The translations under genes were made by a program, and so were the position numbers. Below, in pieces: positions 42,553 through 61,180 of a DNA stretch of 64,000 nt; positions within the stretch are counted from its first letter, which is position 1; the number at the start of each line of letters is the position of its first letter. Location of the stretch: contig DATJBF010000046.1 of the NCBI GenBank assembly GCA_035515475.1, forward strand, positions 917 through 64,916, written 5' to 3'. The notes under the pieces are model-generated. The model saw only the letters and a program-made list of their open reading frames with translations. It did no database searches and was not told the origin of the DNA. This DNA is from Verrucomicrobiia bacterium. Lineage in GTDB: Bacteria > Verrucomicrobiota > Verrucomicrobiia > Palsa-1439.

Positions 42553-43059
42553 TCAGTCCGTCTCGGTTTGTTTTCCGTCTTCGGTGAGTTTGAGGGCTGT
42601 CTTCTTCCCGTCTTTCTTGCCTTCGACTTCGTAGAAGGTCTTGCTGTTCTCGACTTCCTTGCTGGCTTGGAGACCCGTTGCGCTTCCAAAATACTTCTCC
42701 GCAACCGCGCGCGCGGCGGCCGGCAGCGAGGCGAACGGTACGCTTTCCTCGCGGGTCAGAACTGTCCCATCGCCGGCGACGTCCATCTCGACATGTTTGC
42801 CCTTCCAGTTCGCTTCCACGTCATAAACGATCTTTCCGCGTTCCTTTTCCTTCTCAATCCGGTCGATTCTTGCGCCCGGGAACTCCTTGTCGATTGTCGC
42901 GCGAACCGGCGTCGGCAGGTCCGCCAGCCTGACCTTCTGCGCGTCGGGTTCAGGTTTCGTCCCAATCTCCTTTTCAGACGCGGCGCTTGCAACAGTGGCG
43001 ATCGCGAGTCCCAAGATCGGAACCGCCACCACGAGGTTCCGTCCGATCCGATTTTGCAT
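42553..43059 (-). CDS. PepSY-domain periplasmic protein (two repeats)
   Basis: Signal peptide. Two ...KIVYDVEANWKGKHVEMDVAGDGTVL / ...TFYEVEGKKDGKKTALKLTEDGK PepSY-like repeats. Confidence 0.65.
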   Translation of the reverse strand: MQNRIGRNLVVAVPILGLAIATVASAASEKEIGTKPEPDAQKVRLADLPTPVRATIDKEFPGARIDRIEKEKERGKIVYDVEANWKGKHVEMDVAGDGTVLTREESVPFASLPAAARAVAEKYFGSATGLQASKEVENSKTFYEVEGKKDGKKTALKLTEDGKQTETD

Positions 43060-43212: not shown

Positions 43213-43890
43213 TCAGGGCAGGTCCAGTTCCTTGATCCGCCGGTCCAAATTCAGCAAACGCGTGTCGACGTGTCGACCGAAGATGTAATGCCCTCGTTTG
43301 GCTTGCTGGCAAAGTTCCCTAAGAATGTGGAGATTGTGGCCCGTAATTCGCAGCACTTCGGTCTCGAACCGTTCCGGGGCCGGCACGCGGAGCTTGAGTT
43401 GCTTGATCTGCGCGCGAAGCACCTGCAGGGTCGCGTCGTGGGCGAGGGGCGCCAACTCAAGTTTGTCAAAATCCCACAGAATCATTTTCAAGTGGCCCAT
43501 GTCCGACCACGCGAGGCTGCGGGTGACGACAATCATCGGGTGCGACTCGTGAATGTTGTCCAAGAGCGATGCCAGCTTCGGGCCAACCCGGCCGACGTGG
43601 TCGAAGACAAAGCTACGGTTCGTGCCAGCAGTTGCCTTGAGGATCGTGCGCTTGCGGACGATGTTGTCGGCCTTTGAGACGGCGAGATTGAGCTGCGCGA
43701 GCAACGATTCGCACGCTGTCTTCAACGTCGCTGTGTCAGCGCAATACAAGACATTCGGCTGACTCCGGCTCGCTTCGGTCACCAGCGCGGTCTTGCCGAC
43801 TCCTTCGGCACCAAACACGACGAGGTTCCTGCCCGCACACAGGTGCTCACGCACGGTCCGTAGTTCGCGGTCTCGACCGAAAAGGTTCAT
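43213..43890 (-). CDS. AAA+/P-loop ATPase, hypothetical
   Basis: Walker A VVFGAEGVGKTAL near the N-terminus (start at MNLFGRD). Last gene of the operon headed by leader copy 1. Confidence 0.5.
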   Translation of the reverse strand: MNLFGRDRELRTVREHLCAGRNLVVFGAEGVGKTALVTEASRSQPNVLYCADTATLKTACESLLAQLNLAVSKADNIVRKRTILKATAGTNRSFVFDHVGRVGPKLASLLDNIHESHPMIVVTRSLAWSDMGHLKMILWDFDKLELAPLAHDATLQVLRAQIKQLKLRVPAPERFETEVLRITGHNLHILRELCQQAKRGHYIFGRHVDTRLLNLDRRIKELDLP

Positions 43891-43897
43891 GGGCAGT

Positions 43898-44245
43898 TCA
43901 GCCCACCTCCACCACGCTGTGGAATCCGCCCAAGTCATCCGACACGCGCGCGATGGCCTTCGGGTCCAGTTGGGGCGTGCCATCAACGAGGAAATGGTAT
44001 TCGTGGTGGCCGCGCTTCAATTCGACGGAGCATTCCCAATAGCCATCGACGGTCCTCTTCATCAGGTAGCTCTTGAATCCCTCGCCGGTGAACTTCCCGA
44101 CGAGCCGGACTCTTTTCGCCTTCGGGGCGCGGAACCGGAACACGACGCATTTCACCAGTGGGAGCACGGGCCGCCTCTCGACAATGTGTTCGTCGAACAC
44201 ATAGAGGTCCGGCTTGTGGATGTAGGTTGAGGGCCGTCTTTTCAT
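43898..44245 (-). CDS. Small CBM48 / AMPK-beta glycogen-binding-domain-like protein (115 aa), paralogue of 24195..24482
   Basis: VRLVGKFTGEGFKSYLMKRTVDGYWECSVELKRGHHEYHFLVDGTPQLDP is a CBM48 core. Confidence 0.5.
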   Translation of the reverse strand: MKRRPSTYIHKPDLYVFDEHIVERRPVLPLVKCVVFRFRAPKAKRVRLVGKFTGEGFKSYLMKRTVDGYWECSVELKRGHHEYHFLVDGTPQLDPKAIARVSDDLGGFHSVVEVG

Positions 44246-44254
44246 CGTTGCTCC

Positions 44255-44965
44255 TCACGCGTCCGTTCCGCCGCTTTCCAAAACCATAGCGAGTCGATCG
44301 GAGACGTGCGGCGGCAAGGGACAAGCGCGCAGTTTCTCGATTGTCTTGGCGGTATCGTATTTCGTCCTGCGCAGCTTGACGACCCCCTCGTCCCACACCG
44401 CATAGCTGGCGCGCGGATCGCCGTCGCGGGGTTGACCGACGCTGCCGGGGTTCACGAAGAGTTTTGTTCCCACTTTGCGAATCATTGGGAAATGCGTGTG
44501 GCCGCAAAACACCACGTCGGCCAGGATCCCTTCCATTTCGCCGGCCAGTTCGATGTCGGTGATGCCCGGTACCAGGTACCGGTACAGGTTGCCGTTGGGG
44601 GCTGCGTGCGCGAGATGAAACCGGCAATTCTGTAGCACGATCTCTTCCGTCCCTGGCAAGAGTTGCAGCCAGGCGATTTGTTCGGCCGTCAGTAAATTGC
44701 GATTCATCTGGCGCGACGCCACCGACAATTCGCGGAACCGTTTGCCGCAGTGGCAGTCATCGTTGAACGCGAGTGCAAAGTCGTGATTGCCTCGCACGCA
44801 GAACTGCGTGTGATGACGGATCCACTGGACGACCTCAGCCGGCTGCGGACCGTAATCGACAAGATCGCCCAGGCACCAAATCTGATCGACGTGCTTTTCC
44901 GCGCTGGCGACGGCGAGCAACGCCTCGTAGTTGCTGTGAATGTCGGAGATGATGAGGATTTTCAT
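44255..44965 (-). CDS. YfcE/MJ0936-type metallophosphoesterase (phosphodiesterase)
   Basis: MKILIISDIHSNYEAL...LGDLVDYGP...RGNHD...CGHTH motifs. Confidence 0.8.
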   Translation of the reverse strand: MKILIISDIHSNYEALLAVASAEKHVDQIWCLGDLVDYGPQPAEVVQWIRHHTQFCVRGNHDFALAFNDDCHCGKRFRELSVASRQMNRNLLTAEQIAWLQLLPGTEEIVLQNCRFHLAHAAPNGNLYRYLVPGITDIELAGEMEGILADVVFCGHTHFPMIRKVGTKLFVNPGSVGQPRDGDPRASYAVWDEGVVKLRRTKYDTAKTIEKLRACPLPPHVSDRLAMVLESGGTDA

Positions 44966-45300
44966 GCCGCCACGTTCGATTCACGGGGCTTTTTGTGGCC
45001 GTCGTACAGAAAGCAGCCGCAGTATGGACACGATGCCAACATCTCGCTGGCCTCGCGCACCATCCACACGTCGCCGACCGGCAACTGCAGGTGACAGGCC
45101 CCGCAGGCACCCGATTCGGAGATGGCGGCGACCGCGACGCGGCGTCGTTGCAGCAAGCGGTCAAACCTCGTGAGGTACAGCTCGGGAATCCCGCCGCGCA
45201 ACCGGAGGATGCGCCTCCCAACGCCCGTTGCAACAGCTGCGCGACGTGCGCGTAGCGTCAACTCTTGGAGTCTAATCATCATCGCTAACGTCCTGTTCAT
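44962..45300 (-). CDS. C4 zinc-ribbon domain protein
   Basis: CGACHLQLP ... CPYCGCFLY is a four-Cys ribbon after a helical N-terminus. First gene downstream of leader copy 1. Confidence 0.55.
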   Translation of the reverse strand: MNRTLAMMIRLQELTLRARRAAVATGVGRRILRLRGGIPELYLTRFDRLLQRRRVAVAAISESGACGACHLQLPVGDVWMVREASEMLASCPYCGCFLYDGHKKPRESNVAA

Positions 45301-45317
45301 GACGACCTCTGCGAATT

Positions 45318-45396
45318 AAAAAACTCCTACCGAAACTTTCGTTTCAGTAGGAGTCATTAGTCGTCGGTAGAACGACGTTGGGCGAACTCCATCGCC
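45318..45396 (-). promoter_or_regulatory. Conserved structured 5' leader element, copy 1 of 3
   Basis: Plus-strand AAAAAACTCCTACC-loop-GGTAGGAGTCAT ... GGCGAACTCCATCGCC. The same blocks recur at 52201-52295 and 58118-58202. Confidence 0.6.
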
Positions 45397-45477
45397 ACTA
45401 TTTACAGCATTAGGTTGCCAGTACTCGACCGCAAAGTCAACCTCGCTGAACAATGCGGTTGGCGTTAGAGTTCCGGG

Positions 45478-46329
45478 ATGCCGCTTCCGGAAATCTGGAA
45501 AAACCCGCGTGATGAATCGGTGTTGCGGCTGATCCCGCTGGGCACCTTTGTGATGGGGTCGACGGCCGAAGACATCGCGGCGGCGACGCGCATGGACAAG
45601 GAAGGCCCGGAGTTTGGGTTGCGCCACGAAACGCCGCAGTTTCAAAGCCGGACGCCGCTCTATTATATCGGCGTTCACCCCGTGACGAATGAACAATACG
45701 CTCGCTTCCTTTCGGAGACACGACCAGCGCACGATCAACTCGATTACTGGCTGCCTTGGAACGAACGCATCGCCCCGTCCGACTCGACGAACAAATCGTA
45801 TCGCGTGGTGGCTGGCTTCGGGCGGCATCCCGTCGTCAACGTCTCGTGGTTTGGCGCGGAGGCGTACTGTCGTTGGGCTGGGTTACGGTTGCCGACCGAG
45901 ATCGAATGGGAAAAAGCCGCGCGCGGCACGGATGGCCGCCTCTTTCCGTGGGGTAACGACTGGCGGCCCGATGCGCTGTGTTGGTGGAGCAATCGCGGTC
46001 GCAATGAAACCACCGCACCAGTGGATGCTTTCGCCGAAGGCCGCTCGCCGTACGGCCTCTACCAGATGGCCGGCAACGTCGAGGAATGGTGCGTCGACTG
46101 GTACCAGCCCGACGTTTACCAGCGTTACGCCACCGGCGACCTGCGCCCGCCGACGCACGGCGTCGGTCGCGTCGCACGCGGCGGCGCGTGCCTGCGTCGG
46201 AACAAACTAGAGTTCCGTTGCGCCATGCGCCGCGCCAACCCTCCCGCCCTCGTCAACATCCTCTACACCGGTTTGCGCTGCGCCGCGGATGCGCGTATCG
46301 CCGAGCAGTCGGTTGCTGGCTACGATTGA
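45478..46329 (+). CDS. FGE-sulfatase (SUMF1/formylglycine-generating-enzyme-like) domain protein
   Basis: RLIPLGTFVMGS...HPVTNEQYARFL...HPVVNVSWFGAEAYCRWAGLRLPTEIEWEKAARG...YQMAGNVEEWCVDWY are FGE signature blocks. Confidence 0.8.
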   Translation: MPLPEIWKNPRDESVLRLIPLGTFVMGSTAEDIAAATRMDKEGPEFGLRHETPQFQSRTPLYYIGVHPVTNEQYARFLSETRPAHDQLDYWLPWNERIAPSDSTNKSYRVVAGFGRHPVVNVSWFGAEAYCRWAGLRLPTEIEWEKAARGTDGRLFPWGNDWRPDALCWWSNRGRNETTAPVDAFAEGRSPYGLYQMAGNVEEWCVDWYQPDVYQRYATGDLRPPTHGVGRVARGGACLRRNKLEFRCAMRRANPPALVNILYTGLRCAADARIAEQSVAGYD

Positions 46330-46472
46330 CAAGCCGCCAGCTCGTTGGTACTGATATGTCAACCAGTCTGGAGCGTGGTTCTGCTCCAGAAGGTGATGGA
46401 GTCCACCGCAATCGCCGGTTGGCTGATGACTCCTGTTGAGGCTGAAGTGCCTCAGTCAGGAGCGGTCAGCGA

Positions 46473-48281
46473 ATGCAGATCGACAATGTGGACGCCACCG
46501 AGCCGGCGGAGATTACCACTACCGGCAGAATTCCCTTGCCCAACCTGCTGCGCGATGCCAGCGAACGCGTCGGCGCGCTCGGCGCGGAATTCGAGGCCGA
46601 CCGTGACCGCTTGGACGGGTTGCAGCAGCGGTTGCGCGAGGAGCGGTGTCATCTCGCTGTGCTCGGCCAGTTCAAACGCGGCAAGAGCACGTTGATCAAC
46701 GCGTTGCTCGGCGCGCCGGTCTTGCCGGCCTCGGTCGTACCGCTCACGTCGATCCCGACATTTCTGCACGGCGGAGAACAACTCACGGCCCGGGTGGTTT
46801 TTGAAAACGGGAAGCCGGACGAGCGGTTTGCCGGTCCGGACGCGGATGCGCTCGGTGAGTTCCTGGGGAGATTTGTCACCGAAGAAGCCAACCCGCACAA
46901 CCGGCTTGGCGTTAAACAGGTCGAAGTCACCTACCCGGCCACGGTACTGCGCCAGGGGCTGGCATTGATCGACACGCCCGGTATCGGTTCAACGTTCCGG
47001 CACAACACCGAGGCGACCTTGAATTTTCTCCCGCAATGCGACGCGGCGGTGTTCGTCGTGTCGGCCGACCCGCCGGTCACGGAGGTCGAAATTGAGTTTC
47101 TCAAACACGTGCGCGGCAAGCTGGCGCGTGTGTTTTTCATCCTCAACAAAATCGACTACCTCGATGCCGATGAACGCGTTACCGCTGTCGCGTTTCTCCA
47201 GCGGATGTTGCGTGAACAAGCCGGGTTCGAGTCGCCGGCAATCTTCTGTACTTCCGCCCGGCAAGGCCTGAATGCTCGGCAGGACCAGGATGCCGCCAAC
47301 TGGCAACGCAGCGGCGTGGCGGAGATCGAACACCGGATCGTGGAATTCCTGCTCAACGAAAAGACCGACGTGTTGAACCACGCGATTTCCCGGCAAGCGG
47401 ACGACATTCTCGCCGATGTGCAGAGCCGGTTGGAACTGACCCGTCGCTCCCTGCAACTGCCGCTGGCAGACCTCGGCGACCGCGTCCGTCAATTCGAGCA
47501 AAGTCTGACCCGCGTCGAAGAACAACGCATTATCTTGTTGAATCGGCTGGCCCAGGAAGAAACGCGTCTAGCCAAATCAATCGGTGAACGCGCCGACCAA
47601 TTGCTGCCGAAGAGCTTCAAATTTCTGTACGGGATCGTGCAGGCGACCGCGGAACGCGAGGGTGCAAGGTGGACCGAAGACTCAACCCGCAAGGTTATTG
47701 CCGAGGCCATTCCCAGCTTCTTCGAGCGCGAATTTGGCGATGCCCATCAATTGTGTGAGCGGGAATTGCAGGAAGCCCTGCTGCCGCACCGGCGCCGGGC
47801 CGACGAACTCATCGCTTCCGTTCATCATCTCGTGGCGAAATTGTTCGAGCTGCCCTTTGAACCGCCACCGGCTAAGATTGGACTCGCCAGCAGTCGGCCT
47901 TACTGGCGCACCCGGCAATGGATCTTCACCTCGATCAGCTCGATCCCGCCGTCTTGGATTGACCGACTGCTCTCGCAACGGCTGCGCCACGCCCGCATTC
48001 GCCGGCGCGTCATGGAACAGGTGGACTATCTCGTCACCCGCAACGTCGGCGACCTTCAGTCAGGTCTTGTGGAGAACTTGGCAACGAGCGTTCAGAACTT
48101 CCGCACCACGCTCGAAGATCGTCTCCAACGGGCCATTCAAACGACCCGCGCCGCCATCGAAAACGCCCGGCGTCGTCGCACGGAAGATTCCGCCAGCGTC
48201 GCCCCCGAAATCGCGCGACTCGAATTAGCCGCGGCGGATCTGCAAACCCTCCGGCAAGGTCTCGCGCCGGTTCGGCGATGA
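46473..48281 (+). CDS. Bacterial dynamin-like GTPase (BDLP/DynA family)
   Basis: G1 VLGQFKRGKSTLINALLG, G2/G3 LIDTPGIGS, G4 ILNKID, with long helical stalk/paddle regions. 602 aa. Confidence 0.8.
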   Translation: MQIDNVDATEPAEITTTGRIPLPNLLRDASERVGALGAEFEADRDRLDGLQQRLREERCHLAVLGQFKRGKSTLINALLGAPVLPASVVPLTSIPTFLHGGEQLTARVVFENGKPDERFAGPDADALGEFLGRFVTEEANPHNRLGVKQVEVTYPATVLRQGLALIDTPGIGSTFRHNTEATLNFLPQCDAAVFVVSADPPVTEVEIEFLKHVRGKLARVFFILNKIDYLDADERVTAVAFLQRMLREQAGFESPAIFCTSARQGLNARQDQDAANWQRSGVAEIEHRIVEFLLNEKTDVLNHAISRQADDILADVQSRLELTRRSLQLPLADLGDRVRQFEQSLTRVEEQRIILLNRLAQEETRLAKSIGERADQLLPKSFKFLYGIVQATAEREGARWTEDSTRKVIAEAIPSFFEREFGDAHQLCERELQEALLPHRRRADELIASVHHLVAKLFELPFEPPPAKIGLASSRPYWRTRQWIFTSISSIPPSWIDRLLSQRLRHARIRRRVMEQVDYLVTRNVGDLQSGLVENLATSVQNFRTTLEDRLQRAIQTTRAAIENARRRRTEDSASVAPEIARLELAAADLQTLRQGLAPVRR

Positions 48282-48985
48282 AACCAATCCCGCCAGCAGC
48301 AGTTGATGTTCATATCGCCGGGCTGCGCGTCCCGAATTGGACGGTGCGTTGGCAAGCCGCGAAGACGCTGGCGGTCATCGGTGGCCAGCGTGAAGTCGAG
48401 CCGCTGATCGCCGCGCTGAGCGACGCGGATATCTGGGTGCGTTGGGAAGTGGCGCACGCATTGGGAAACATCGGAGGCGCACGCGCCCTCGAAGCGCTCG
48501 TCTCGGTCATGCGCGATCCGGATAGTTGGGTGCGTTGGGAAGCGACGCGAGCACTGGGAAACATTGGCGGGACACGTGCAGTCGAACCGCTGCTGGCAGC
48601 CCTGGGTGATACGGAGGCGCAAGTCCGCTGGGAAGCGGCCGTGGCGCTGGGAAAGATCGGCGCAGAGCGCGCAATTGCTGCGTTGGTCGCCGCTCTCAAC
48701 GACCGTGAAGAGCGCGTGCGGTGGGAAGCGGCCCACGCCTTGGGCAACGTCGGTGGCGCACGCGCAATCGAGGCCCTGATCGTCGCTCTCCATGACTCCG
48801 ACGATCGGGTGCGAGGTGAGGCGGCGCGGGCGTTGGGGAACATCGGCGATGCTCGGGCATTGCCCGAACTTGACCGCACTTCACGCGAGAACAACGGGAT
48901 GACGGGGTGGGATGCCGAAGTGGCTGGTCAGGCGCGGGCGGCATCCAAGCAGATCCGGCAACGGATGAGATCTTCGATCCACTGA
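48278..48985 (+). CDS. HEAT-repeat (PBS-lyase type) protein
   Basis: Six or more repeats of VRWEAAxALGNIGGARA(I/L)E(A/P)L(I/L)AAL. ATGA-coupled to the dynamin gene. Confidence 0.8.
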   Translation: MKPIPPAAVDVHIAGLRVPNWTVRWQAAKTLAVIGGQREVEPLIAALSDADIWVRWEVAHALGNIGGARALEALVSVMRDPDSWVRWEATRALGNIGGTRAVEPLLAALGDTEAQVRWEAAVALGKIGAERAIAALVAALNDREERVRWEAAHALGNVGGARAIEALIVALHDSDDRVRGEAARALGNIGDARALPELDRTSRENNGMTGWDAEVAGQARAASKQIRQRMRSSIH

Positions 48986-49024
48986 TTCTCGTTGTCCGGC
49001 ACGACGACGTCCTGACTACGAAAG

Positions 49025-50590
49025 TCAGCCGGTCCCGACGCTCTTCGCCGCACCGTCGAATATCTCTCGATACAAGTCCACCCCAAAGCTGGTTGGCAAC
49101 GGCTCGCCCGGAAGCAATTTGAAGGTCCGCGTCCCATCGGCTTGGCGTTCGGCGCGCAAGAACAGGACGCCGTCGGTCTTGTCCCCATCGAGGTTGTGGG
49201 CGAATTCATACATGTGTGTCACGAAGAAGATTTTGACGCGTGTTTCCAGCAACGCGCGGACGATCTGCCGGGCGATCTCCGAGCCTTCCCGTTCGTTGGT
49301 CGCGGCAAAAGATTCGTTGAACAGCAAGATCGAGTCCGGCGTTAGCGCGTCGGCGATGGCGCTCATCCGCTTAAGCTCTTCATCGAATTTCCCGCTCGTC
49401 ATGGTGGTGTCTTCCTCGCGCTTGTAATGCGTGAACAGGCCGCGGCAAATATCGGCAGTAAATGACTCGGCGGCCACAAACATGCCGCATTGCATCATGA
49501 GCTGCGCCAGCCCCACGCCGCGCAAGAAGGTCGATTTTCCGCCCTGATTGGCGCCGGTGATGATGAAGAGTTTCTTCCCGTCGGCACCCAAGTCGTTCCC
49601 GACGACACCTGAATCGGTTGTGAGCGCGAGACAGACATCGCGCAGTCCGACACACGAGTGCTTGCGAGCAGCGGGTGGTGCCGGAACAGGGAAGCACACC
49701 GGCACTCTTTTCAGGGCAAGCTGGTGGTGCAAGTTCACGCAGCCGAGATAGAACGCCAGTTCGGCCCGCAGCATCACAAAGAAGCTCAGCATGTGGTCGG
49801 CGGACTGGGCAGCCGCATTCGCCACCAGATTGATTCCCCGGTTCTGCATCTCGGACAACGCCCGCGCGCCGGCTTCGTCGCGCTCGGCGAGGCGGTAGGT
49901 GTAAGCGGGCGGCCTCCGAGAGAAGATCCGCCGGATCCAGCCCGGCTTTCCGCGCAGCGATTGGCGCAGGACGTAGTTGATACCTTGGTTGCCTTTCCCC
50001 AGTTCGGCGCTCACCAAGATGCCATCGCGGAACTTCAGTTCCTTGAGACGAGCTTTGATGGCAGCGAAATAATCATCCGTCAATTCCATTGTGAGCATCT
50101 TGAAAAACGCCGTGAAGCCCTCCGACTCAAATTCGGCGGCATGTTCATCGCCGACGGCCTTCAACCTGCCGAGAACATCCGTGAAGATCTGCAGCAATTC
50201 GCCCGCCTCATACAATATGCTGCGCGGAAATGCGCTGGAGAGGCTCAGCCAACGCCGTTGTTGGCGTTCGATCGCCTCGACGGCAAGACCGTAAATGGTC
50301 TTGACGATGGAATCGTGTTGCAGACAGTCCTTGAGGACAGCGTGACGGTAACGAATGGTTTCAGCATCGTCACGCAGACCCGAGAGGACCGCCTGCTTTG
50401 CCACCTGGAACAGAAATTTATCGCCACGCGCCATGGCGTTGAACAAGGTGTTGAGTTCCAGATCCTGCATTAATGTTTCTTCGTGTGATAGCAGTTTCGG
50501 TCTCACATCGAAATCCCTGTGGCGAGACCACGACGGCGGTTCCTCCTCAAAGTGGAAATCACGATCCCGATACATCAGGTGCGCTTTCAT
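49025..50590 (-). CDS. MutS-domain-V (ABC-type) ATPase, MutS-like without mismatch-binding domains (downstream copy)
   Basis: Walker A ITGANQGGKSTFLRGVG, Walker B/D-loop ILLFNESFAATNEREGSEIA, and a core/lever-like N-terminal helical region. Confidence 0.75.
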   Translation of the reverse strand: MKAHLMYRDRDFHFEEEPPSWSRHRDFDVRPKLLSHEETLMQDLELNTLFNAMARGDKFLFQVAKQAVLSGLRDDAETIRYRHAVLKDCLQHDSIVKTIYGLAVEAIERQQRRWLSLSSAFPRSILYEAGELLQIFTDVLGRLKAVGDEHAAEFESEGFTAFFKMLTMELTDDYFAAIKARLKELKFRDGILVSAELGKGNQGINYVLRQSLRGKPGWIRRIFSRRPPAYTYRLAERDEAGARALSEMQNRGINLVANAAAQSADHMLSFFVMLRAELAFYLGCVNLHHQLALKRVPVCFPVPAPPAARKHSCVGLRDVCLALTTDSGVVGNDLGADGKKLFIITGANQGGKSTFLRGVGLAQLMMQCGMFVAAESFTADICRGLFTHYKREEDTTMTSGKFDEELKRMSAIADALTPDSILLFNESFAATNEREGSEIARQIVRALLETRVKIFFVTHMYEFAHNLDGDKTDGVLFLRAERQADGTRTFKLLPGEPLPTSFGVDLYREIFDGAAKSVGTG

Positions 50591-52200
50591 GGCGTCTCGC
50601 CCGTGCGGCTTCGCACCCGCTCCTTCAGCCGGTCGTAAGTCACCCGGTATTTCTCGGCAATTGCCAGGGCGTAGGCAAGGCCGTCGGCCGGTCTTCTCTC
50701 GATCTTATAGGTGCGCAAGGTCGGATTGTCCGGCACGACTCCGGCGACGACGCTGACGGTTTTCTCGTTCAAAGAGGCAAGTTCATCCAGGAAGGTCACG
50801 CAAACGCACAGCAGATCAAGTTGCGATATGGTCTCCAGAACCTTTCTGGTCAGGCAGATGGCATCTTTCACAGTCGTCGAGGAAACCATCTCGTTAATGA
50901 CAATGATGCTGTTGGGCGTGGCGTCGGTGAGAATCTGATGAATCCTGACCAGATCGTCCTTCAGTTTCCCGCGCAGCGTCGCGATGTCCTCCCGGCGCTC
51001 GAAGTGCGTGAAGAGGCGGTCAAAAAGAAAGAGTTGCGCCTCTGAACCGGGCACAGGACAACCCAGGCTCGCCAGATAGTGCAGTTGCCCGAACGTGCGG
51101 GCGAAGGTCGTCTTTCCGCCCTGATTCGGGCCGGAGACGACGAAGATGCGCTCCTTGCCGCTCAAGCTGAAATCATTGCACACGACTGGTTTTTTTTCGC
51201 GTATGAGTTGGCCCGCCAGCGCCAAGTCAAAGCCCTCGCGGTTGCTGATGTTCTGGCACGTGTCGGAAACCCGTGGATGGCAGAACTTCAGGCCATTGCG
51301 CTTGAATGTTTCGGCATAATCCAGATACGCGATGTAGAATTGAATTTCCCGGTCGAAAACAACAATCGTGTTTTCGAGAAAACCTCCGTTCTTCGTGCTG
51401 AACCCGTCGAGTGCGCGAAAGGCATCGGGGTTTAGGAGCGCGACCCGGTCCAGCACGGCGGCTTCGACGTGGTTCAGGTTCGTATAGGATGGGAATCTGA
51501 CCCGGTAATCCTTCACGGCACCTTGTTTGAACTTCGCGAACGTCTCCTCGACGACAACGCTGTAATCGGGTTCGGCCTCGTAGTCGCAGACGGTGACGCT
51601 GCCGCCTTTGATGAGCAAGCAGTAGACAATGGCCGCGAGGCCGGATTTCACAGCTTTCGCCTCTTGGAGGAGCGCTTGGAAGCGGTCCGATTCGGTGTAC
51701 TGCGTCAGAAACGTCCGGAAGGACAGAAGGCCACGCGAACTCGGCTCCGCCAGATCGAGATTGTGCCGCAACTCCGCGACCGATTCACAATACAGTTCCG
51801 CGGCGTCCAGTAACCAGGCTTCCTGTTCGTATTTGTAGGAGAGCTTCTCCGCGGCGGTCAGACGCTCCCGCACGGCGCGCATTTGCTTCGAGAATGATTT
51901 GATGCTATCGAACAGCGGTTTGCCTTCGATGTCGCGCATGACTTGCTGGCGATACTCAATCGCCCCGAGATCGGTCAGGCGGGAGTAAAAGAACGGTTTG
52001 AGATTATACTCATCCCTGCCGTCCGTAATGGCGTCCACGATCTGATCGAGATTCAAATCGCGAAAGAAATCCGGCGGCTCGACCGTTTCCCCACTACGTG
52101 CGTTGTCCGTTCCGTCGAAAAGGATGCTGTGGAAACTTGGGGGTGAGACGGCGACAGCCGTCTCGCGTTCGCAACCCTGGCCAGCGCTTAACGTTTGCAT
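50587..52200 (-). CDS. MutS-domain-V (ABC-type) ATPase, MutS-like (upstream copy), ATGA-coupled to its paralogue
   Basis: Walker A VSGPNQGGKTTFARTFG and D-loop IIVINEMVSSTTVKDAI. N-terminal region paralogous to 49025..50590. Confidence 0.75.
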   Translation of the reverse strand: MQTLSAGQGCERETAVAVSPPSFHSILFDGTDNARSGETVEPPDFFRDLNLDQIVDAITDGRDEYNLKPFFYSRLTDLGAIEYRQQVMRDIEGKPLFDSIKSFSKQMRAVRERLTAAEKLSYKYEQEAWLLDAAELYCESVAELRHNLDLAEPSSRGLLSFRTFLTQYTESDRFQALLQEAKAVKSGLAAIVYCLLIKGGSVTVCDYEAEPDYSVVVEETFAKFKQGAVKDYRVRFPSYTNLNHVEAAVLDRVALLNPDAFRALDGFSTKNGGFLENTIVVFDREIQFYIAYLDYAETFKRNGLKFCHPRVSDTCQNISNREGFDLALAGQLIREKKPVVCNDFSLSGKERIFVVSGPNQGGKTTFARTFGQLHYLASLGCPVPGSEAQLFLFDRLFTHFERREDIATLRGKLKDDLVRIHQILTDATPNSIIVINEMVSSTTVKDAICLTRKVLETISQLDLLCVCVTFLDELASLNEKTVSVVAGVVPDNPTLRTYKIERRPADGLAYALAIAEKYRVTYDRLKERVRSRTGETP

Positions 52201-52295
52201 GACTCGTTACCGATTCTCATTGCGTTTCGGTAGGAGTCATCAACCGGAGGGCGGTTCCCCCGAAATGCTTCGGGGCAGGCAAACTCCATTGCCTG
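52201..52295 (-). promoter_or_regulatory. Conserved structured 5' leader element, copy 2 of 3 (abuts the start codon)
   Basis: GACTCGTTACCG-loop-CGGTAGGAGTCAT ... CAGGCAAACTCCATTGCCTG. The second hairpin carries a compensatory G-C to A-T change relative to copies 1 and 3. Confidence 0.6.
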
Positions 52296-52410
52296 AACAA
52301 ATTCTATCATCCTTTCAGGTGAATGCAACCATCCCGGCAGCCTGCCCGGATGTCGAGGGGATTCGCCAGCGGTGTCGAGGCAACGGCGCTCCCCAATCAG
52401 TCAATCACTT

Positions 52411-54164
<1,754 letters not shown>

Positions 54165-55851
54165 ACAGCTCGATTGCCAACCAGATGGGTGATGGCCCGC
54201 AGGTAGGCGTCCTGCTCGTCCTCGTTGCGAAGATACCGGCGGAGCGCGTCGGTCTTCAGGGCAAACGCCTGCATGTCCTCACCGACTTCCTCGAAACAAC
54301 GCGCGGCTTCGGTCAGGAGAAATCGCACAACCTCTTGGTCGCTCGTTGCGGCAATCATCATCGCCAAGTGACGGAGACAGGCTCCTTGCGAGCGGGTGTA
54401 GATTTCGCGCCCCGCAGCTTCGGCCAGAAATCCTGCGAGCTTTTCCACGTGGCTCTTCTCGGCCTCGCGCAGTAAACAGCACACGCGACAGTTCTTCGAG
54501 TCGCGGGCCAACTCGCGCACGACCTGTTGTGCATCGGACGAATCAGATGCCTGCGCCAGCAATCGCGAAACACGTTCGACGAGCTTGGCGTAGCCGACCG
54601 ATGCGCCGACCGGCGACGACAGCATGTTCAACTGCCACGTATGCAGCGGACAGAAACCCAACTCAGCCGCAAACTCGATTTGCGCCTTCTCGTCGGTCGA
54701 GATCGCGTATTGCCATTGTGAGAAGAAGTCGAACGCGACGCGATACAAGTGGTCGCAGACCGGGCAACTGCGCGTCTTCATGGCGGCGGTTGGTTCCGGT
54801 GGCGCGGGTTTCAGGATGACCGGCATTGAGACTTCCGTCGTGGCCGGCGGCGCGGGAGCGGCCGGCAGGTTCAGAATCTCACGCTGCGCGGCCAGAAGAC
54901 AGTGGCGAATGGCCGGTAGCCGCGCGTCGTCGGCTTGGATTTCGCTCAGGTGGAGCGCGCGTTCAGCAATGGCCGCCAGAAAGGTGGCGGCCTTCTCGTC
55001 GGAGAGGAACCGACTCAGTTCCTCCTGCAACGGCGGAAGGCCCGACCCGTCTTCTTCAGCAAGGGCGAGTTTGCAGGACAGCGGGAAGATGCGCAGGCCG
55101 TCCGCACCCATCTGCTCATGGAGGGTCTTGGTGATGAAGTCCAAGACCTCCCGCCGTTCGTGTTCGGCGAGCAGGTCGGTCTTGTTGACGACGAAGAAAA
55201 TCTTATGAACGTGCTGCCGAATGCTTTCTAGGAACTCCAACTCGGCACTGGTGAGCGGGGAGTCCACGCTGGTGACGAACAGCACGGCATCGCATTGTGG
55301 GATGAAAGCGTAGGTGGTGGCGGTATTGGCGGTGATCGCCGAGCCGACGCCGGGGGTGTCCACGAATTCCAAGCCACGCCGCAGAAACGGCACTGGCACC
55401 TCGACGGTGGCCGTCTTGACCTTCTTGCGATTGCCAGGGTTGCCCCGCTCGGTCACGTAATCTTCGAGTTGCGAGAGCGACACGATCTCGGGCCATTGCA
55501 ATCCCTCGCGCTCCACCACGAGCCGTTCCTGCGGTCCGAATTTTAGCACGGTGATCGCCGAGGTGAGCGGCAGCACGCCGGTGGGGAGCAGTTCGCACCC
55601 GATGATCGCATTCATCAACGAGCTCTTGCCGCGCTTGAACTGACCAAGCACGGCCAGCGTGAACCGGTCCTCGGCGAGTTTCACCATCAACTCCTCGCAT
55701 TGCCGGTCGCGCCCTTCGTCGCCACATTTCTTGAGCACATCGCGCAACAGGCGCAACTGGCTGGCGAGAGACAGCTTGATTCGGCTGTACGCCTTGAGTT
55801 TCTCCTGATCGGGAGCGGTTTCGCGGCGATCAACCGTTATCTGGTCGGTGT

Positions 55852-56154
55852 TCATGTTTTGCCGCTGCCGACCGGATGTTGCGTGCGGCGCGCGGATTTG
55901 TAGCTCGTGGAAAAGTAGTCGCCGCCCAGACTAGTGAGGCCATCGATGTCACCCGACCGCAGTTTGTTGGCCATCTTTTCGAAGAATCGCGTCACGTCCT
56001 CGTCAAAACTCGTTTGGCGGCAGGAGCGGCAAACCCAGCCCTCGGTGTTGACGACCAGGATGTGCGGCCAATGCATGATGCTGTGCTCGACCTTCTGCCA
56101 ATGCACTGCCCAGCTTTGACAATAAGGACACCGTTTGAATCCCTGAGCGCTCAT
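55852..56154 (-). CDS. Small zinc-ribbon protein (100 aa)
   Basis: CPYCQSWAVHW ... CRSCRQTSFD. ATGA-coupled on both sides. Confidence 0.5.
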   Translation of the reverse strand: MSAQGFKRCPYCQSWAVHWQKVEHSIMHWPHILVVNTEGWVCRSCRQTSFDEDVTRFFEKMANKLRSGDIDGLTSLGGDYFSTSYKSARRTQHPVGSGKT

Positions 56155-57653
56155 CGGCCGATCATCTCCCGGTGGCCGACGAATTTCTCGATGACGCGCC
56201 GCCAGGAAGTTTGCTCTACACCCTTGGGTTCATTGGCGTGGCGGTAGTCGCGTTTGCGGTCAAACTCCTGGAGTTCAGTTTGCAGCGCAGCAAGCCGCCC
56301 GCGCTCGGCTCCGAGCAGTCGCTGAAGTTGCGGGTGATCGGGAGACTCGTCCAACGCCATCTGCAGGTGCGGCAGGCAGATGCCGAACGAGTCGTGATAC
56401 TTGGAGGCGAAATCGGGATCGTCGAAGAAGTCGAGAAGATTCGACAGGGTGAGGTATTCGGTCGAGGAGTTCCAATCGCACATCGGACAGTTGGCGGTGG
56501 CCGGATACAGAAGCGGAGCGTCGGATGCCCGTCGCTTGGCGCGCGGCTTGGTCGGCTCGGTAACGGCGGCGCTGCGCTCGATCACGGTTGCCAGAAGTTC
56601 CTCGTACACGACGGCGAGGCCCGCCGGGGCGGTGGGCGTGCGCGCTGCCAACCAACCGTGTGAGTTACAGAAGCCACCCGAGCGCCGGAGCGCCAGGCGA
56701 ACGCCCGGGTCCATGATCCCTTCGTGGAAGAGAAGTGTCATCTGTCGTTCGGACTCGCGCTCGATCAGGGCGCAGATCACGCAGCAGTCGGCATCCAGCG
56801 CGTCACGAAGCCGATACAACGGCAGCCATTTCGACGCGGGCGGCTCGCGGGGGAAGACGAGGTTGAGTGCAGACCTCTTCGTGCGTCGTGGCCGGTCCCT
56901 ATGAAAAACCTCGCGCTTGCCGACGAAGAGTTCGATGGCGCGCCGCCGCGCGGCTTGGTCCGTATCCTTCGGCTCGTTGGCGAGGCGGTCATCGCGTTTG
57001 CGGCTGAACTCCTTCAGTTCGGTTTGGAGCCCGGTGAGTTTTTCGCGTTCGGTAGCCAGCAACTCCGGTAGGTGTGGGTGGTCGGGAAATCCTCGCATCG
57101 CCAGGTCAAGGTGTGGGAGACACAGGCCGAAGGACCGTTGAAATGCCGTACGCAATTCGGGATCATCGAACCATTTCAGTAGTTCGCCGAAATAGACCCG
57201 CTCGTTAAAGCGCGCCGTTTCGCATACGGGACAGGGGGCAGTGGTCTCCAGCACGGACGCGGATCGCCCGCGACGACGGGACCGGTGCAAGCGTCGAGGC
57301 GACCCGGCGGCTGCCAGTTGGCGGACCTGGGCCTCGGTCCGCTCAATCACGGAACGCAGCAAATCGCCGTAGATGATGGCGATGCCGGAGTCGGTGTGGG
57401 GGATGCGAGTGGCCATCCAGGCATGCGCATTGCAGAACCCTTTTGACTTGTAGAGGCGCAGCCGAACGCCCACATCGCTAACGTTCTCGTAAAACAAGTT
57501 GTCGAGTTGCCGGTAACAAGCGCGTTCGACCAACGTGCAGATCGGACAACCCGCCGCATCGAGCGCATCGCGCAGATAGATGAAGTCCAGCCACTTGACC
57601 GGCTCATTTTGTGGACGAAGAATGCTCATGCTTGGAATGTCCGCGACCGACAA
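56151..57653 (-). CDS. Tandem-duplicated CPxC...GFCxxHxW / CPxC...GLCLPHL domain protein (two roughly 250-aa repeats), function unknown
   Basis: Repeat 1 GCPICTLVERACYRQ...GFCNAHAWM...CPVCETARF...SFGLCLPHLDLAM...ANEPKDT. Repeat 2 CCVICALIERESERQ...GFCNSHGWL...CPMCDWNSS...SFGICLPHLQMAL...ANEPKGV. Confidence 0.7.
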   Translation of the reverse strand: MSVADIPSMSILRPQNEPVKWLDFIYLRDALDAAGCPICTLVERACYRQLDNLFYENVSDVGVRLRLYKSKGFCNAHAWMATRIPHTDSGIAIIYGDLLRSVIERTEAQVRQLAAAGSPRRLHRSRRRGRSASVLETTAPCPVCETARFNERVYFGELLKWFDDPELRTAFQRSFGLCLPHLDLAMRGFPDHPHLPELLATEREKLTGLQTELKEFSRKRDDRLANEPKDTDQAARRRAIELFVGKREVFHRDRPRRTKRSALNLVFPREPPASKWLPLYRLRDALDADCCVICALIERESERQMTLLFHEGIMDPGVRLALRRSGGFCNSHGWLAARTPTAPAGLAVVYEELLATVIERSAAVTEPTKPRAKRRASDAPLLYPATANCPMCDWNSSTEYLTLSNLLDFFDDPDFASKYHDSFGICLPHLQMALDESPDHPQLQRLLGAERGRLAALQTELQEFDRKRDYRHANEPKGVEQTSWRRVIEKFVGHREMIGR

Positions 57654-58110
57654 AACCCTTCCTGTCCAGCAAGCCGGTCAGTTCAGAAAGCAGGGACTGC
57701 AACTGCGGCAGTTCGGCGTTGAGGAACTCGGTGGTCGCCGGGTCCACCGCGCCGTAGCCCCGCAAGTAGCGGGGCTTGATCTCCTCAATGCTCACGTTTG
57801 CCAAAACGAGCGCGGCGAGCGCCGAGCGCAGTTGCGGCTCCTGCTGAGGTTCCAAATCGAGTCGATCGCCAAGAATCTGCATCTTGGCCTGAATCTTCGA
57901 GATGAGATCGTCGACCAAGTGCGCCTGCTCGCGGGGCAGTGGCTCGCTGTGGCGGGTTAACACACCCTCGGTGGGAGGGCAGTGAAACACGTGTCGCAGT
58001 TGCAGCAATCGGCTCTCGATGTCGGCCAACGTGATCGAAATCGACCTGCGCTGTGGCTCGCGGAGGTCGAGGCGGTTGATGTTCATGAGGACCGATCTTT
58101 CTGTTCGCAT
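57604..58110 (-). CDS. Hypothetical protein (168 aa), first gene of the long minus-strand operon
   Basis: ORF immediately downstream of leader copy 3. Its 3' end overlaps the next gene by about 50 nt. No recognisable domain. Confidence 0.45.
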   Translation of the reverse strand: MRTERSVLMNINRLDLREPQRRSISITLADIESRLLQLRHVFHCPPTEGVLTRHSEPLPREQAHLVDDLISKIQAKMQILGDRLDLEPQQEPQLRSALAALVLANVSIEEIKPRYLRGYGAVDPATTEFLNAELPQLQSLLSELTGLLDRKGFVGRGHSKHEHSSSTK

Positions 58111-58117
58111 TTGCCCG

Positions 58118-58202
58118 ACAAAAAACTCCTACCAACGCTTGCGTCGGTAGGAGTTATCACCCCGAACGCTTTCGGGGAAAGTTGCCGGCGAACTCCATCG
58201 CC
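58118..58202 (-). promoter_or_regulatory. Conserved structured 5' leader element, copy 3 of 3
   Basis: ACAAAAAACTCCTACC-loop-GGTAGGAGTTAT, CCCCGAA..TTCGGGG hairpin, GGCGAACTCCATCGCC. In mRNA sense it reads hairpin + UUUUUU about 15 nt before the AUG. Confidence 0.6.
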
Positions 58203-58265
58203 GTCTACCTTTAGCTTACCGTTGTCCGGCCAACTGTCAATCTGTCGGTGGCGCCAATGCTGCGT

Positions 58266-60413
58266 CTACAATCGTGACAGCAACAATACCATCACCAGCG
58301 ACAGCAGCGCGTAGGCAATATAGACGTTGATCCTCCCCCGATGCAACGTGGCCAGACCTCTGGCAATTGCCAGCGCCGCGCTTTTGAACGGCTGCCCGAC
58401 AGCGCGATCGATGATGTACACCTCCTCCCGCTCGCGATGGATCGCCGTCCGGAAATGTTGAGCTACGGTCTGCGGCGTGTCCTCCGTGGTGGCGGGGCGA
58501 AAGACCGCGTCGAAGATCACACGCACGGAATTGGAGAAACCGGTCGCCGTGTAGGTCATTTCCGGCAGGAGCCGCCTCACGCCGCCGTCCCAACACGCTC
58601 GCCGCGCGATGTGACGCTTGCGCGCGGACGCAAAACGCACGACAAGGTAGGTCAATCCCAGCAAACCGCACAGTACCACCAGCATGTAGGAGGTGGACAT
58701 GGCGAACACCACAGGGTTTTCCTTGCCGCCGCGGTGCAACACCACCAAGCCGCGTCCGGGCACGACGGACTGACCCACCTGCGCGCCCAGATCGTGAAAT
58801 TCCGCCACGAGCGCACGGGGCAATTGCTCGTGCTCGGGACTGTTGGCGAAGAACGGTGGCACGAGCGCGTCCGCCGTGTTCGCGCCGGTCAGCGGCGAGA
58901 ACGTCTCGTTCAGAACGGGGATCACATACGTCGGCAGCACGCCGAGAGCGAGGCAGAGCACTGCGAGCAAACCCATCGACACAATCGTGGACCGTTGCGC
59001 TTCGACCGCTTTTTCGGCAGGCGCGGAGCGGGTCATGCCGAGAAAGCCCATCGCGAATGCTTTCACGAAACACGTCACCGCCAATGCTGCCGTGAGCGCG
59101 AGGCCGGCGCCGCAAAGTGCAAAGACGGTTTTCACCCCGGTCGATGACAACTCCGCGCTGCGCAACATCGTTTGCAGCGTCAGCCATTCGCTCACGAAAC
59201 CGCTGAACGGCGGCAGCGCCGCGATGGAGAGCGCGCCTGCGAGAAACCCCAGCGCCGTCCACGGCATCCGCCGAATCAATCCGCCCAGCCGGTCGAGGTC
59301 GCGTGAGCCGACGCGTTCCTCCACCGTACCCGCGCCGAGGAACAGGAGCGCCTTGTAGACGGAGTGGTTCGTCAGGTGATAGAGCGCGGCGACGAACGCG
59401 ATGCCGGCCGGCACCGTCAGACCGTACGCCATGAAAATCATGCCCGCGCCGAGGCCGACGGCGATGATGCCCGCATTCTCAATCGAACTGTGCGCGAGCA
59501 TGGTCTTCAGGTCATTGTCGGTCGTCGCGTAGAGGATTCCCAGCAGCGCCGAGATTGTGCCAATGATCATCACGACCACGCCCGGCCCGACCATCGACAT
59601 CGGGAGGAGATCGGCGTTGACGCGCACGATGCCGTAAAAGCCGAGGTTCAACGTGGCTCCTGCGAGTATCGGAACAAACGCGGACGGAGCGGCGGCGTAG
59701 GCCCGCGGCAACCAGAAATTGACGGGTACGAGTCCGGCTTTCACTCCGAACCCGAAGAACGAAAGCAGGAACACCGCCCAGCGAGCGCTCGCGCTCAGCT
59801 CGGCGGCGGACGCCTTGAGCGCGGGAAAACCGAGCGACCCCGCCGCCACCACGAGGATCAGGAACGCCACCACCGCCGCCAGCGCGCCCGCCTCGCTCAC
59901 TGCGAGCATGAGGTAGCCTGACCGGGTGTGCTCGGACTCCTCGTGTTCGTAATTGACGAGGAGGTAACAGAGAATCGACATCGCTTCCCAAGCCAGCAAG
60001 AACAGCAGCACGTCCGCCGCAATCAACACCAACACGATGGACGCAAACAGCGCGAGGTACATCACGGAAAAGGCTTTCAAGCTGTAACGGCCCGCGTAAC
60101 GCGGCAGGTTGCCGGCCGCGAAAATCGAGACCGGCAGGAACACCAGCCCGGTGATGAAGGCGAACAACGCCGACAGGCGGTCCACGTTCAGCGTCAGCGT
60201 GCCCAAGTTGGGCACGATCCACAGCGACATGGCCCACGTGTTCCCGTCGAACAGCGTTTGCCCGCTCGCGCCCAGCAGGACGAGCGAGGCCAGCCCGCCG
60301 ATCCACGCGAGCCATTGCGGATTCCGGCGGTCGGGAAGCAGCAGCGCGAGCACGATGCCCGCGCCGCACAGCGCGAAAAATGTGCCTGTCCATGCGCCAA
60401 TGTCGCTCACCGT
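58266..60413 (-). CDS. Proton-conducting membrane transporter subunit (NuoL/MrpA/HyfB family)
   Basis: Polytopic antiporter-like motifs (WLPRAYAAAPSAFVPILAGATLNLGFYGIVR...). GTG start at 60413 has an AGGAGG 7 nt upstream. Confidence 0.8.
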   Translation of the reverse strand, partial: TVSDIGAWTGTFFALCGAGIVLALLLPDRRNPQWLAWIGGLASLVLLGASGQTLFDGNTWAMSLWIVPNLGTLTLNVDRLSALFAFITGLVFLPVSIFAAGNLPRYAGRYSLKAFSVMYLALFASIVLVLIAADVLLFLLAWEAMSILCYLLVNYEHEESEHTRSGYLMLAVSEAGALAAVVAFLILVVAAGSLGFPALKASAAELSASARWAVFLLSFFGFGVKAGLVPVNFWLPRAYAAAPSAFVPILAGATLNLGFYGIVRVNADLLPMSMVGPGVVVMIIGTISALLGILYATTDNDLKTMLAHSSIENAGIIAVGLGAGMIFMAYGLTVPAGIAFVAALYHLTNHSVYKALLFLGAGTVEERVGSRDLDRLGGLIRRMPWTALGFLAGALSIAALPPFSGFVSEWLTLQTMLRSAELSSTGVKTVFALCGAGLALTAALAVTCFVKAFAMGFLGMTRSAPAEKAVEAQRSTIVSMGLLAVLCLALGVLPTYVIPVLNETFSPLTGANTADALVPPFFANSPEHEQLPRALVAEFHDLGAQVGQSVVPGRGLVVLHRGGKENPVVFAMSTSYMLVVLCGLLGLTYLVVRFASARKRHIARRACWDGGVRRLLPEMTYTATGFSNSVRVIFDAVFRPATTEDTPQTVAQHFRTAIHREREEVYIIDRAVGQPFKSAALAIARGLATLHRGRINVYIAYALLSLVMVLLLSRL

Positions 60414-61180
60414 GTCGTTACCTCCTGATTGGCGAAGGTTGCCGGAGAAACCATGGCCGCCGGTGGTTTTCGACCAACCGCCACAAGCAATCCGTGCAGG
60501 ATCGACAGCGGCGGAGGAGGATTGCCCGGCACTTCCACGTCCACAGGCAAGACATCCTTTGCGCCCCCGCAGCAAACGAAGCTCGGTCCGAACACACCGC
60601 CTGACAACGCGCACGCGCCGACAGCGACCACGCGCTTCGGCGTCGGCATCGCGTCGTACGTCTTCTGCAACGGCAACCGCATGTGATCGGTGACCGGCCC
60701 GACGACGAGCAGGATGTCCGCCAATCGCGGGGTCGGCGTGAGGAAAAACCCAAGGCGGTGCATGTTGTAGTACGGGTTGTTGAGTTGCTTCACCTCATGG
60801 AGGCACGCACCGCAGTCGCCAGCGTCCACGACGATGATATTAATCGAACGGGCGAATGCGCGACCGAATTGACGCTCCGCAGCGGTTGGTCCGGCAACCA
60901 GCGCCGCCCATTCGTAGCCCGGCTGCCAGTCAAGCGGAGCGGCCACCCCCCGTGCGCATCGAAAACAGTGGACGCAGCGACGATAATCCACCTCGACCGA
61001 GCGGTCGCTCGAGCGGATCGCGTCGGTCGGACAACGGTCAGCCAGCAACGAAGCCGCCGCTGTCAGATACGCTCCGCCCACCGGCAGACCCGGCGAGACG
61101 CCGGGGGCGGTTTCCTCTGCCGCGGGATAGCGCGTCGTCTTGATCCCGGTCCGAATTCCTTTGCGAACCCATTGGCTCAT
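60407..61180 (-). CDS. NuoB/HycG-like small subunit with N-terminal ferredoxin-like motif; degenerate cluster ligands (Ehr-type)
   Basis: CVHCFRCARG ferredoxin motif. NuoB-like VVDAGDCGACLHEV, GACALSGGVF and VEVPGNPPPP, where PGNPP replaces the canonical PGCPP. Confidence 0.75.
   Translation of the reverse strand: MSQWVRKGIRTGIKTTRYPAAEETAPGVSPGLPVGGAYLTAAASLLADRCPTDAIRSSDRSVEVDYRRCVHCFRCARGVAAPLDWQPGYEWAALVAGPTAAERQFGRAFARSINIIVVDAGDCGACLHEVKQLNNPYYNMHRLGFFLTPTPRLADILLVVGPVTDHMRLPLQKTYDAMPTPKRVVAVGACALSGGVFGPSFVCCGGAKDVLPVDVEVPGNPPPPLSILHGLLVAVGRKPPAAMVSPATFANQEVTTR

Follow-up and report, generated by a model that had tools for sequence, protein, structure and literature searches.

Genes and riboswitches at the locus

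The RNA leaders described here lie in a 64,000-nucleotide stretch of a Verrucomicrobiia genome (contig DATJBF010000046.1 of assembly GCA_035515475.1), referred to below as the window. Within it, four aptamers matching the fluoride riboswitch family (Rfam RF01734, the crcB motif), designated RS1 to RS4, precede operons that encode dynamin-like GTPases, proteins with the domain DUF6062, HEAT-repeat proteins, a tandem pair of MutS-like ATPases, a metallophosphoesterase and an enolase (Table 1). In 2010 the crcB motif was described as preceding mutS-like, K+/Cl- transport and formate hydrogen lyase genes and as frequently overlapping a terminator (PMC2864571); it was later shown to sense fluoride (reviewed in PMC7266159; PMC5473149). 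A preliminary description of this DNA, made from the sequence alone, had recorded three paralogous leaders on the minus strand, each 5' of a minus-strand operon, and had proposed them as a new cis-regulatory RNA that links three operons into one regulon. Reading of the sequence confirms these three copies (RS1, RS2 and RS3), their places and their orientation, but a fourth (RS4, on the plus strand) had been missed, and the RNA proved to belong to a known class. RS1, RS2 and RS3 are located directly 5' of minus-strand open reading frames (ORFs) with start codons at 45300, 52200, and 58110 or 58086, respectively, while transcription from RS4 is divergent from that of RS1.

Table 1. Riboswitches, expression platforms, genes and neighbouring features; positions are those of the window unless a related locus (L number) is named
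Feature	Position	Strand	Remarks
RS1 aptamer	45341-45405	-	RF01734 45.1 bits, E 2.9e-09; own model (R1) 47 bits; P1 GGCG/CGCC, P2 GUCG/CGAC, pseudoknot GGAGUU with GACUCC
RS1 platform	45318-45355	-	15-bp terminator hairpin using the ACUCCUAC pseudoknot strand, then U6; minimum free energy (MFE) fold z = -5.2
RS1 operon	43213-45300	-	Pfam domains in the rows below
Zn-ribbon protein	44962-45300	-	Zn_ribbon_9
Phosphoesterase	44255-44965	-	Metallophos_2
CBM48-like protein	43898-44245	-	CBM48-like
ATPase	43213-43986	-	AAA_16/STAND
RS4 aptamer	46383-46442	+	RF01734 48.6 bits, E 2.1e-10, best of the four; R1 56.9 bits
RS4 platform	46418-46474	+	ACUCCUG pairs with CAGGAG, helix reaching the AUG at 46473; MFE fold z = -4.7
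RS4 operon	46473-48985	+	Pfam domains in the rows below
Dynamin-like GTPase	46473-48281	+	602 aa; Dynamin_N 6e-27
HEAT-repeat protein	48278-48985	+	235 aa; HEAT_2 8e-48
RS2 aptamer	52224-52302	-	RF01734 46.9 bits, E 7.5e-10; P1 variant GGCA/UGCC; extra hairpin of 18 nt in the P1-P2 linker
RS2 platform	52199-52240	-	AUGACUC-CUACCGA pairs with UCGGUA-GAGUCAU; covers ribosome-binding site region and AUG at 52200; no U-run
RS2 operon	49025-52200	-	Tandem MutS-domain-V-only ATPases (Pfam MutS_V)
MutS-like ATPase, first	50587-52200	-	537 aa
MutS-like ATPase, second	49025-50590	-	521 aa
RS3 aptamer	58141-58211	-	RF01734 39.9 bits, E 1.4e-07; 7-bp P2; GAUAACUCC tail, its A pairing with loop U
RS3 platform	58118-58155	-	14-bp terminator hairpin on the ACUCCUACC strand, then U6; from fold and top terminator-scan match
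RS3 operon	52411-58110	-
Small protein	57604-58110	-	168 aa; without Pfam match
DUF6062 protein	56151-57653	-	500 aa
Small protein	55852-56154	-	100 aa
Dynamin-like GTPase/DUF6062	54128-55855	-	575 aa; DUF6062 C-terminal
Zn-ribbon+HEAT protein	53700-54164	-	154 aa
Enolase	52411-53703	-	430 aa
FHL-like complex	58266-64000	-	Formate-hydrogenlyase-like/group-4 NiFe-hydrogenase-like membrane complex; runs past the right window end
Fifth aptamer + terminator	L081 24-90	+	Upstream of the FHL-like operon
RS2-like subtype	L001 13013-13077		Same subtype as window 52224-52302 (-)
RS2-like subtype	L006 10227-10293 and 7090-7156
RS2-like subtype	L075 3245-3321
Tandem aptamers	L046 7729-7789 and 7871-7929	+	Before a single dynamin-like gene
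Left flank, proximal	36235-43059	-	Co-directional, downstream of RS1 operon: PepSY-like protein, HisKA sensor kinase, PMT_2 glycosyltransferase, second metallophosphoesterase, PAP2 phosphatase
Left flank, distal	28086-36231	-	Resistance-nodulation-division (RND) efflux system: AcrB-type pump, HlyD/CusB-like adaptor, OEP outer-membrane factor
Transposase ORF	32392-33216	-	IS1/IS240-like DDE type; interrupts the RND efflux system

Identity of the leaders

The whole window was scanned against the 4227 families of Rfam 15 at curated thresholds, which returned exactly four matches, all of them to RF01734, whose gathering score is 34 bits. RS1, RS2, RS3 and RS4 each score above it, their alignments cover model positions 1-64 of 64, and the conserved GAUGG and UGAUGACUCCUAC blocks are present. 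In the consensus alignments the architecture is that of the family, with P1 capped by the 8-nt loop AUGGNGUY and with a P2 hairpin, and so is the gene context, which comprises enolase, formate-hydrogenlyase (FHL)-like and MutS-like genes in the window and CrcB, Na_H_Exchanger and enolase in related loci. The RNA class is already known, and a routine Rfam scan annotates it. The claim of novelty in the preliminary description, which had itself named a positive Rfam scan beforehand as refuting, was thereby lost, since every copy scores as RF01734; its claim that the leaders are cis-regulatory RNAs is right.

In mRNA sense, copies 1 to 3 (RS1 to RS3) share, in this order, the GGCGAUGGAGUUCGCC hairpin (GGCAAUGGAGUUUGCC in copy 2), a GC-rich hairpin, AU(G/A)ACUCCUAC, and a stem closed by GGUAGGAGU, 3' of which copies 1 and 3 have a U6 run a short way ahead of the start codon. 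These ordered blocks had been listed before and are present on the minus-strand reading, with one correction: in copy 2 the variable GC hairpin is an extra insertion between P1 and P2. The similarity goes far beyond chance, as judged by the Rfam E-values of copies 2, 1 and 3 (1.4e-07 or lower; Table 1), while the shared 12-mer taken alone is weakly significant, with three matches against 0.58 expected and 2 of 100 shuffles reaching three. A low-stringency search with our own covariance model found no copy in the window beyond the four.

Aptamer structure and covariation

Our model was built from 34 aptamers with P1 as the sole annotated structure, the pseudoknot being left out. The alignment consists of 101 model matches from the window and the related loci described below, and covariation was measured on the 100 distinct sequences among them. 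P1 and the six pseudoknot pairs together are 99.3% paired, with double compensatory changes in seven of the ten pairs. Taken separately, P1 is 99.2% paired, with double changes in three of its four pairs; the six pseudoknot pairs, which join the P1 loop GGNGUY to the 3' tail RACNCC, are 99.3% paired, and four of them show double changes (GC/AU, UA/CG, CG/UA). None of 500 shuffles reaches any of the observed covariation measures, and pairing falls to 35-75% when the 3' partners are slid by one to three columns. Because the pseudoknot was absent from the search model, its support is independent of the making of the alignment. In the B. cereus crcB riboswitch, the corresponding pseudoknot joins L1 nucleotides 12-17 to nucleotides 42-47 (PMC10687018).

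Variation among the window copies follows the same pattern. The last pseudoknot pair is U-A in RS3 (GAUAACUCC), C-G in RS4 and U-G in RS1 and RS2. The change from GGCGA/UCGCC to GGCAA/UUGCC in copy 2, which had been put forward as compensatory, is genuine: it replaces G-C by A-U at the fourth P1 pair. The pairing of the UGGAGU loop with ACUCC, earlier suggested as a possible antiterminator pseudoknot, is the defining pseudoknot of the family, covaries in the 100 sequences and competes with the terminator stem. The real P2 of copy 2 is a short GCC/GGU stem, the conspicuous GC hairpin before it being the 18-nt insertion in the RF01734 alignment. An aptamer subtype with the P1 GGCAA/UUGCC and the extra hairpin in the P1-P2 linker recurs elsewhere, in particular upstream of MutS-like pairs (examples in Table 1); read by eye, the sequence of this linker hairpin differs between genomes while its self-complementary stem is kept.

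Expression platforms and proposed switching

All four ligand-free leader folds are more stable than those of shuffled sequences (z from -3.8 to -5.2; for RS2, z = -4.3, with identical MFE and centroid folds), and the competing helix of each platform uses the ACUCCU strand, as platforms of RF01734 do. The two strongest terminator-like sites in the 44-59 kb region, as ranked by a terminator scan, are those of RS1 and RS3. In the RS4 platform, the Shine-Dalgarno sequence AGGAG (46458-46462), 10 nt before the AUG at 46473, is buried in the helix. Among 108 related riboswitch matches, 41 are followed by a hairpin and U-run terminator. The identity of the aptamers of RS1-RS4, their structure and their alternative helices are shown by these data.

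From the known behaviour of the family, the following mechanism can be proposed. Fluoride, bound through Mg2+, would lock the P1 loop (GGAGUY) and the 3' tail (RACUCC) together in the pseudoknot, and the tail, once docked, would no longer be available to the competing helix downstream. This helix is an intrinsic terminator in RS1 and RS3, so that fluoride would bring about read-through; in RS2 and RS4 it buries the ribosome-binding site or the start codon, and fluoride would permit translation initiation. A comparable course has been described for the B. cereus crcB riboswitch, in which the fluoride-bound pseudoknot of L1 with the 3' strand delays terminator nucleation (PMC10687018). The preliminary description had in effect re-derived this published mechanism of the fluoride riboswitch from the letters of the DNA.

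Two candidate promoters picked by eye, TTGACA-N16-TAAGCT for RS3 and TTGCAT-N16-TAGAAT for RS2, fail the criteria of the promoter scan, and no promoter is claimed.

Proteins encoded behind the riboswitches

The 575-aa dynamin/DUF6062 protein of the RS3 operon is 100% identical to a protein annotated as 'dynamin family protein' in a metagenome-assembled genome of Verrucomicrobiae. The GTPase domains of both window dynamin-like proteins match those of the bacterial dynamin-like proteins (BDLPs) Nostoc BDLP (2j68), M. tuberculosis IniA (6j72) and Campylobacter DLP1/2 (5owv), with values of 1e-16 to 1e-23, and, as BDLPs often do, they occur in pairs or operons. They differ from BDLPs in the Cys-rich DUF6062 that forms a C-terminal half and in their control by fluoride riboswitches. 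No NCBIfam equivalog is matched by the window dynamin-like proteins. Invariant Cys/His motifs of DUF6062, in the order CPxC, CPLH, CRVC and CLRH in an 18-sequence alignment, are found in both DUF6062 proteins of the RS3 operon and suggest that the domain may hold two metal sites. No solved relative of DUF6062 was found, and an AlphaFold2 model of the 575-aa protein has a mean predicted local distance difference test (pLDDT) score of 65, with a poor C-terminal domain.

Two functional assignments were considered and rejected. The first, proposed for the dynamin and MutS-like operons, is a LeoABC-type anti-phage defence system ('Dynamins'), for which the PADLOC matches to LeoA and LeoBC (45-64 bits) are at superfamily level and confined to the GTPase domain; PADLOC returned no match for DUF6062, the MutS-like proteins or the small proteins. 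The second is a role of the RS2 pair as MutS1/MutS2 repair proteins, in which only the ATPase domain (Pfam MutS_V) is matched and not the full MutS architecture with mismatch-binding, connector, core and clamp domains, or Smr: NCBIfam models, whose cutoffs are 400-640 bits, give 62-84 bits and no equivalog, and PDB matches span only residues ~306-526, within the ATPase domain.

On the left, the co-directional genes downstream of the RS1 operon and the transposase-interrupted efflux system beyond them are listed in Table 1.

The FHL-like complex and a fifth riboswitch

Upstream of RS3 and on the same strand, the window carries FHL-like genes with the Pfam domains Proton_antipo_M, Oxidored_q6 and a fused Complex1_30kDa+49kDa. 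A second contig (L081) is 97.3% identical to window positions 50407-62527, agrees with the window in the gene calls of the RS3 operon, and carries the start of the FHL-like operon, upstream of which lie a fifth aptamer and a terminator, ~2 kb beyond the right end of the window. The order on the minus strand is therefore riboswitch, FHL-like operon, RS3, DUF6062/dynamin/enolase genes, RS2 and MutS pair, and the riboswitches, including the fifth copy, define a fluoride-response island of ~21 kb in a Verrucomicrobiae genome. Both short contigs on which the fifth-aptamer region is found stop ~25 nt upstream of the aptamer. The megablast alignment of the window with L081 stops at 62527, inside the Proton_antipo_M gene (window 62527-64000 against L081 ~2150-3628), which may represent a local divergence or a recombination boundary.

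Association of dynamin-like genes with fluoride riboswitches in related loci

An alignment of the dynamin/DUF6062 protein was used to search a single genome of each species; this gave 580 relatives, of which 80 loci were kept. Our covariance model found 122 riboswitch matches in 69 of these 80 dynamin loci, which come from more than ten phyla. In 44 of the 80 loci the dynamin gene has a same-strand match no more than 500 nt upstream, and the eight weakest of these upstream matches all pass the Rfam gathering threshold (38-51 bits). When single genes are counted, a riboswitch lies no more than 400 nt upstream of 45 of the 88 dynamin-like genes, and 64 of the 88 have a same-strand riboswitch within 4 kb. 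The first ORF after the riboswitch encodes Dynamin_N in 47 of 114 cases scanned, plus 10 left out solely for a size limit; as the loci had been picked for a dynamin homologue, the telling statistic is the share of dynamin loci with a riboswitch and not that of riboswitches followed by dynamin. Other first ORFs among the 114 are MutS_V (10), NADHdh (5), enolase (4), Na_H_Exchanger (4), Metallophos (4) and CRCB (2). The exporters and antiporters among these downstream genes confirm that the aptamers of the related loci are ordinary fluoride riboswitches. The association of dynamin-like genes with fluoride riboswitches is strongly supported.

Up to seven matches were found in one locus (17.7 kb, L061), five each in L006 and L023, and four each in L004 and L029. 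Such multi-riboswitch islands occur in Verrucomicrobiota, Planctomycetota, Acidobacteriota, Chloroflexota, Desulfobacterota, Negativicutes, Eremiobacterota, Bacteroidota and Proteobacteria. The modules that recur in Verrucomicrobiota, Planctomycetota, Acidobacteriota, Negativicutes, Eremiobacterota and Syntrophobacter, in many cases under a riboswitch of their own, are dynamin A, dynamin B, the MutS1-MutS2 pair, metallophosphoesterase with enolase, Zn-HEAT and FHL-like. One further locus has two fluoride aptamers in tandem (L046; Table 1).

The dynamin-like GTPases, to which DUF6062 is often fused or adjacent, their HEAT partners and the MutS-domain-V ATPase pairs share these multi-riboswitch islands with genes for enolase, metallophosphoesterase and FHL-like proteins. 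They might together form an undescribed and widespread fluoride-response module, a tentative proposal to which we give somewhat less than an even chance. No paper tying dynamin or DUF6062 to fluoride riboswitches was found in a literature search that did not cover Baker et al. 2012 and its supplementary gene list; because of this gap, no priority is claimed for the dynamin association. The Weinberg 2010 supplements contain neither 'dynamin' nor a crcB-related 'GTPase', and papers on fluoride riboswitches and GTPases are, as far as their titles and abstracts tell, not about riboswitch-controlled GTPases.

Weighing the fluoride reading

We consider it about 96% probable that the elements are four fluoride riboswitches of RF01734, each acting as an ON switch on the operon that follows. 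Several points weigh against this reading. The ~50 window ORFs scanned yielded no domain of a fluoride exporter (CrcB or CLC-F), and a promoter scan detected no consensus sigma-70 promoter upstream of any copy; RS3 and RS2 may be internal to longer transcripts that arise by read-through. The fifth aptamer scores 32.8 bits with Rfam (E 1.9e-7), just below the 34-bit cutoff, and 32.8 bits with R1. Finally, that the ligand is fluoride and that RS1-RS4 switch in the direction described are inferences drawn from how the family is known to behave.

A rival view is that fluoride-like aptamers have drifted to another small anion or ion and that the unusual operons answer to a signal other than fluoride. 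The extra hairpin and P1 variant of RS2, the GAUAACUCC of RS3 in place of GAUGACUCC, and the dynamin and DUF6062 genes, which are without a known link to fluoride, would fit such a drift. The deviations, however, are either compensatory, as where the A of RS3 pairs with the loop U, or placed at a site of the family that tolerates insertions: the extra hairpin is an insertion in the Rfam alignment, and insertions are found there in the 2010 seed alignment as well. Moreover, related islands carry these aptamer types in front of enolase, CrcB and Na+/H+ exchanger genes, and drifted specificity is very improbable.

A new, undescribed class of riboswitch or leader for an unrecorded ligand was the reading of the preliminary description, which did not recognize the RNA and met dynamin-like, MutS-like and Zn-ribbon/phosphoesterase genes that are no textbook riboswitch targets. 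It has hardly any chance of being right, as the RF01734 threshold is passed over the full model length, the core nucleotides and pseudoknot are those of the fluoride aptamer, and the context includes enolase and FHL-like genes, with CrcB and Na+/H+ exchangers in relatives. The inference of one regulon, by contrast, is right in that the operons are indeed tied together, but the regulon is that of fluoride. That the copies are dispersed mobile-element repeats or products of recent duplication without regulatory role, as several similar copies within 13 kb and the insertion-sequence-like transposase ORF might suggest, is scarcely credible, because the similarity is limited to the aptamer core while flanks and P2 differ, every copy lies in a sense-oriented 5' leader with a matching expression platform, the arrangement is kept in distant phyla with compensatory changes, and the orientation relative to genes in related genomes is the opposite of the random one that would be expected.

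Significance and comparison with the published fluoride regulon

With the four leaders read as fluoride riboswitches, the residual value of the locus lies in the gene content of a dense and conserved fluoride island and not in the RNA class. CrcB and CLC-F were recognised as fluoride exporters through the linkage of riboswitch and gene. By the same logic of riboswitch-gene linkage, three groups of proteins without known role are flagged as putatively fluoride-induced: the dynamin/DUF6062/HEAT modules, the MutS-domain-V pairs, and the Zn-ribbon/metallophosphoesterase/CBM48/STAND operon. If the proposed module is true, fluoride tolerance would extend beyond export and enzyme over-production, and the candidate roles would be to remodel or repair membranes, or to deal with Mg-F or metal-fluoride species by means of nucleoside triphosphatases. 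The dynamin link, seen in 69 of 80 loci and in many phyla, is a directly testable lead.

At the level of the RNA class, no difference from RF01734 is seen. The fluoride riboswitches of B. cereus crcB and Thermotoga petrophila have the same P1 loop, P2 and 3'-tail pseudoknot, and the GAUGG and UGAUGACUCCUAC blocks recur in the window copies. A further likeness to known crcB RNAs is the terminator overlapping the 3' strand of the pseudoknot, as in an ON switch, with enolase, FHL-like and MutS-like genes downstream. The genes that a 2024 review names as commonly associated with the riboswitch are exporters, Na+/H+ antiporters, pyrophosphatase, haloacid dehalogenase (HAD) phosphoesterases, enolase and formate hydrogen lyase (PMC11139923); given these and the earlier crcB-motif associations, it is no surprise to meet enolase, FHL-like and MutS-like genes at this locus. 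The local peculiarities are the density of copies (four in 13 kb, or five in ~21 kb), the sequestration of the ribosome-binding site in two of them, the extra linker hairpin of RS2, and the lack of an exporter gene under riboswitch control within the window. Streptomyces cattleya and Methylobacterium DM4 carry many fluoride riboswitches per genome and mount a multilayered response (cited in PMC11139923). Unlike in those genomes, the riboswitches of the window are packed in one co-directional island, and the modules of dynamin-like GTPase, DUF6062 and HEAT proteins under their control are not mentioned in the accessible literature.

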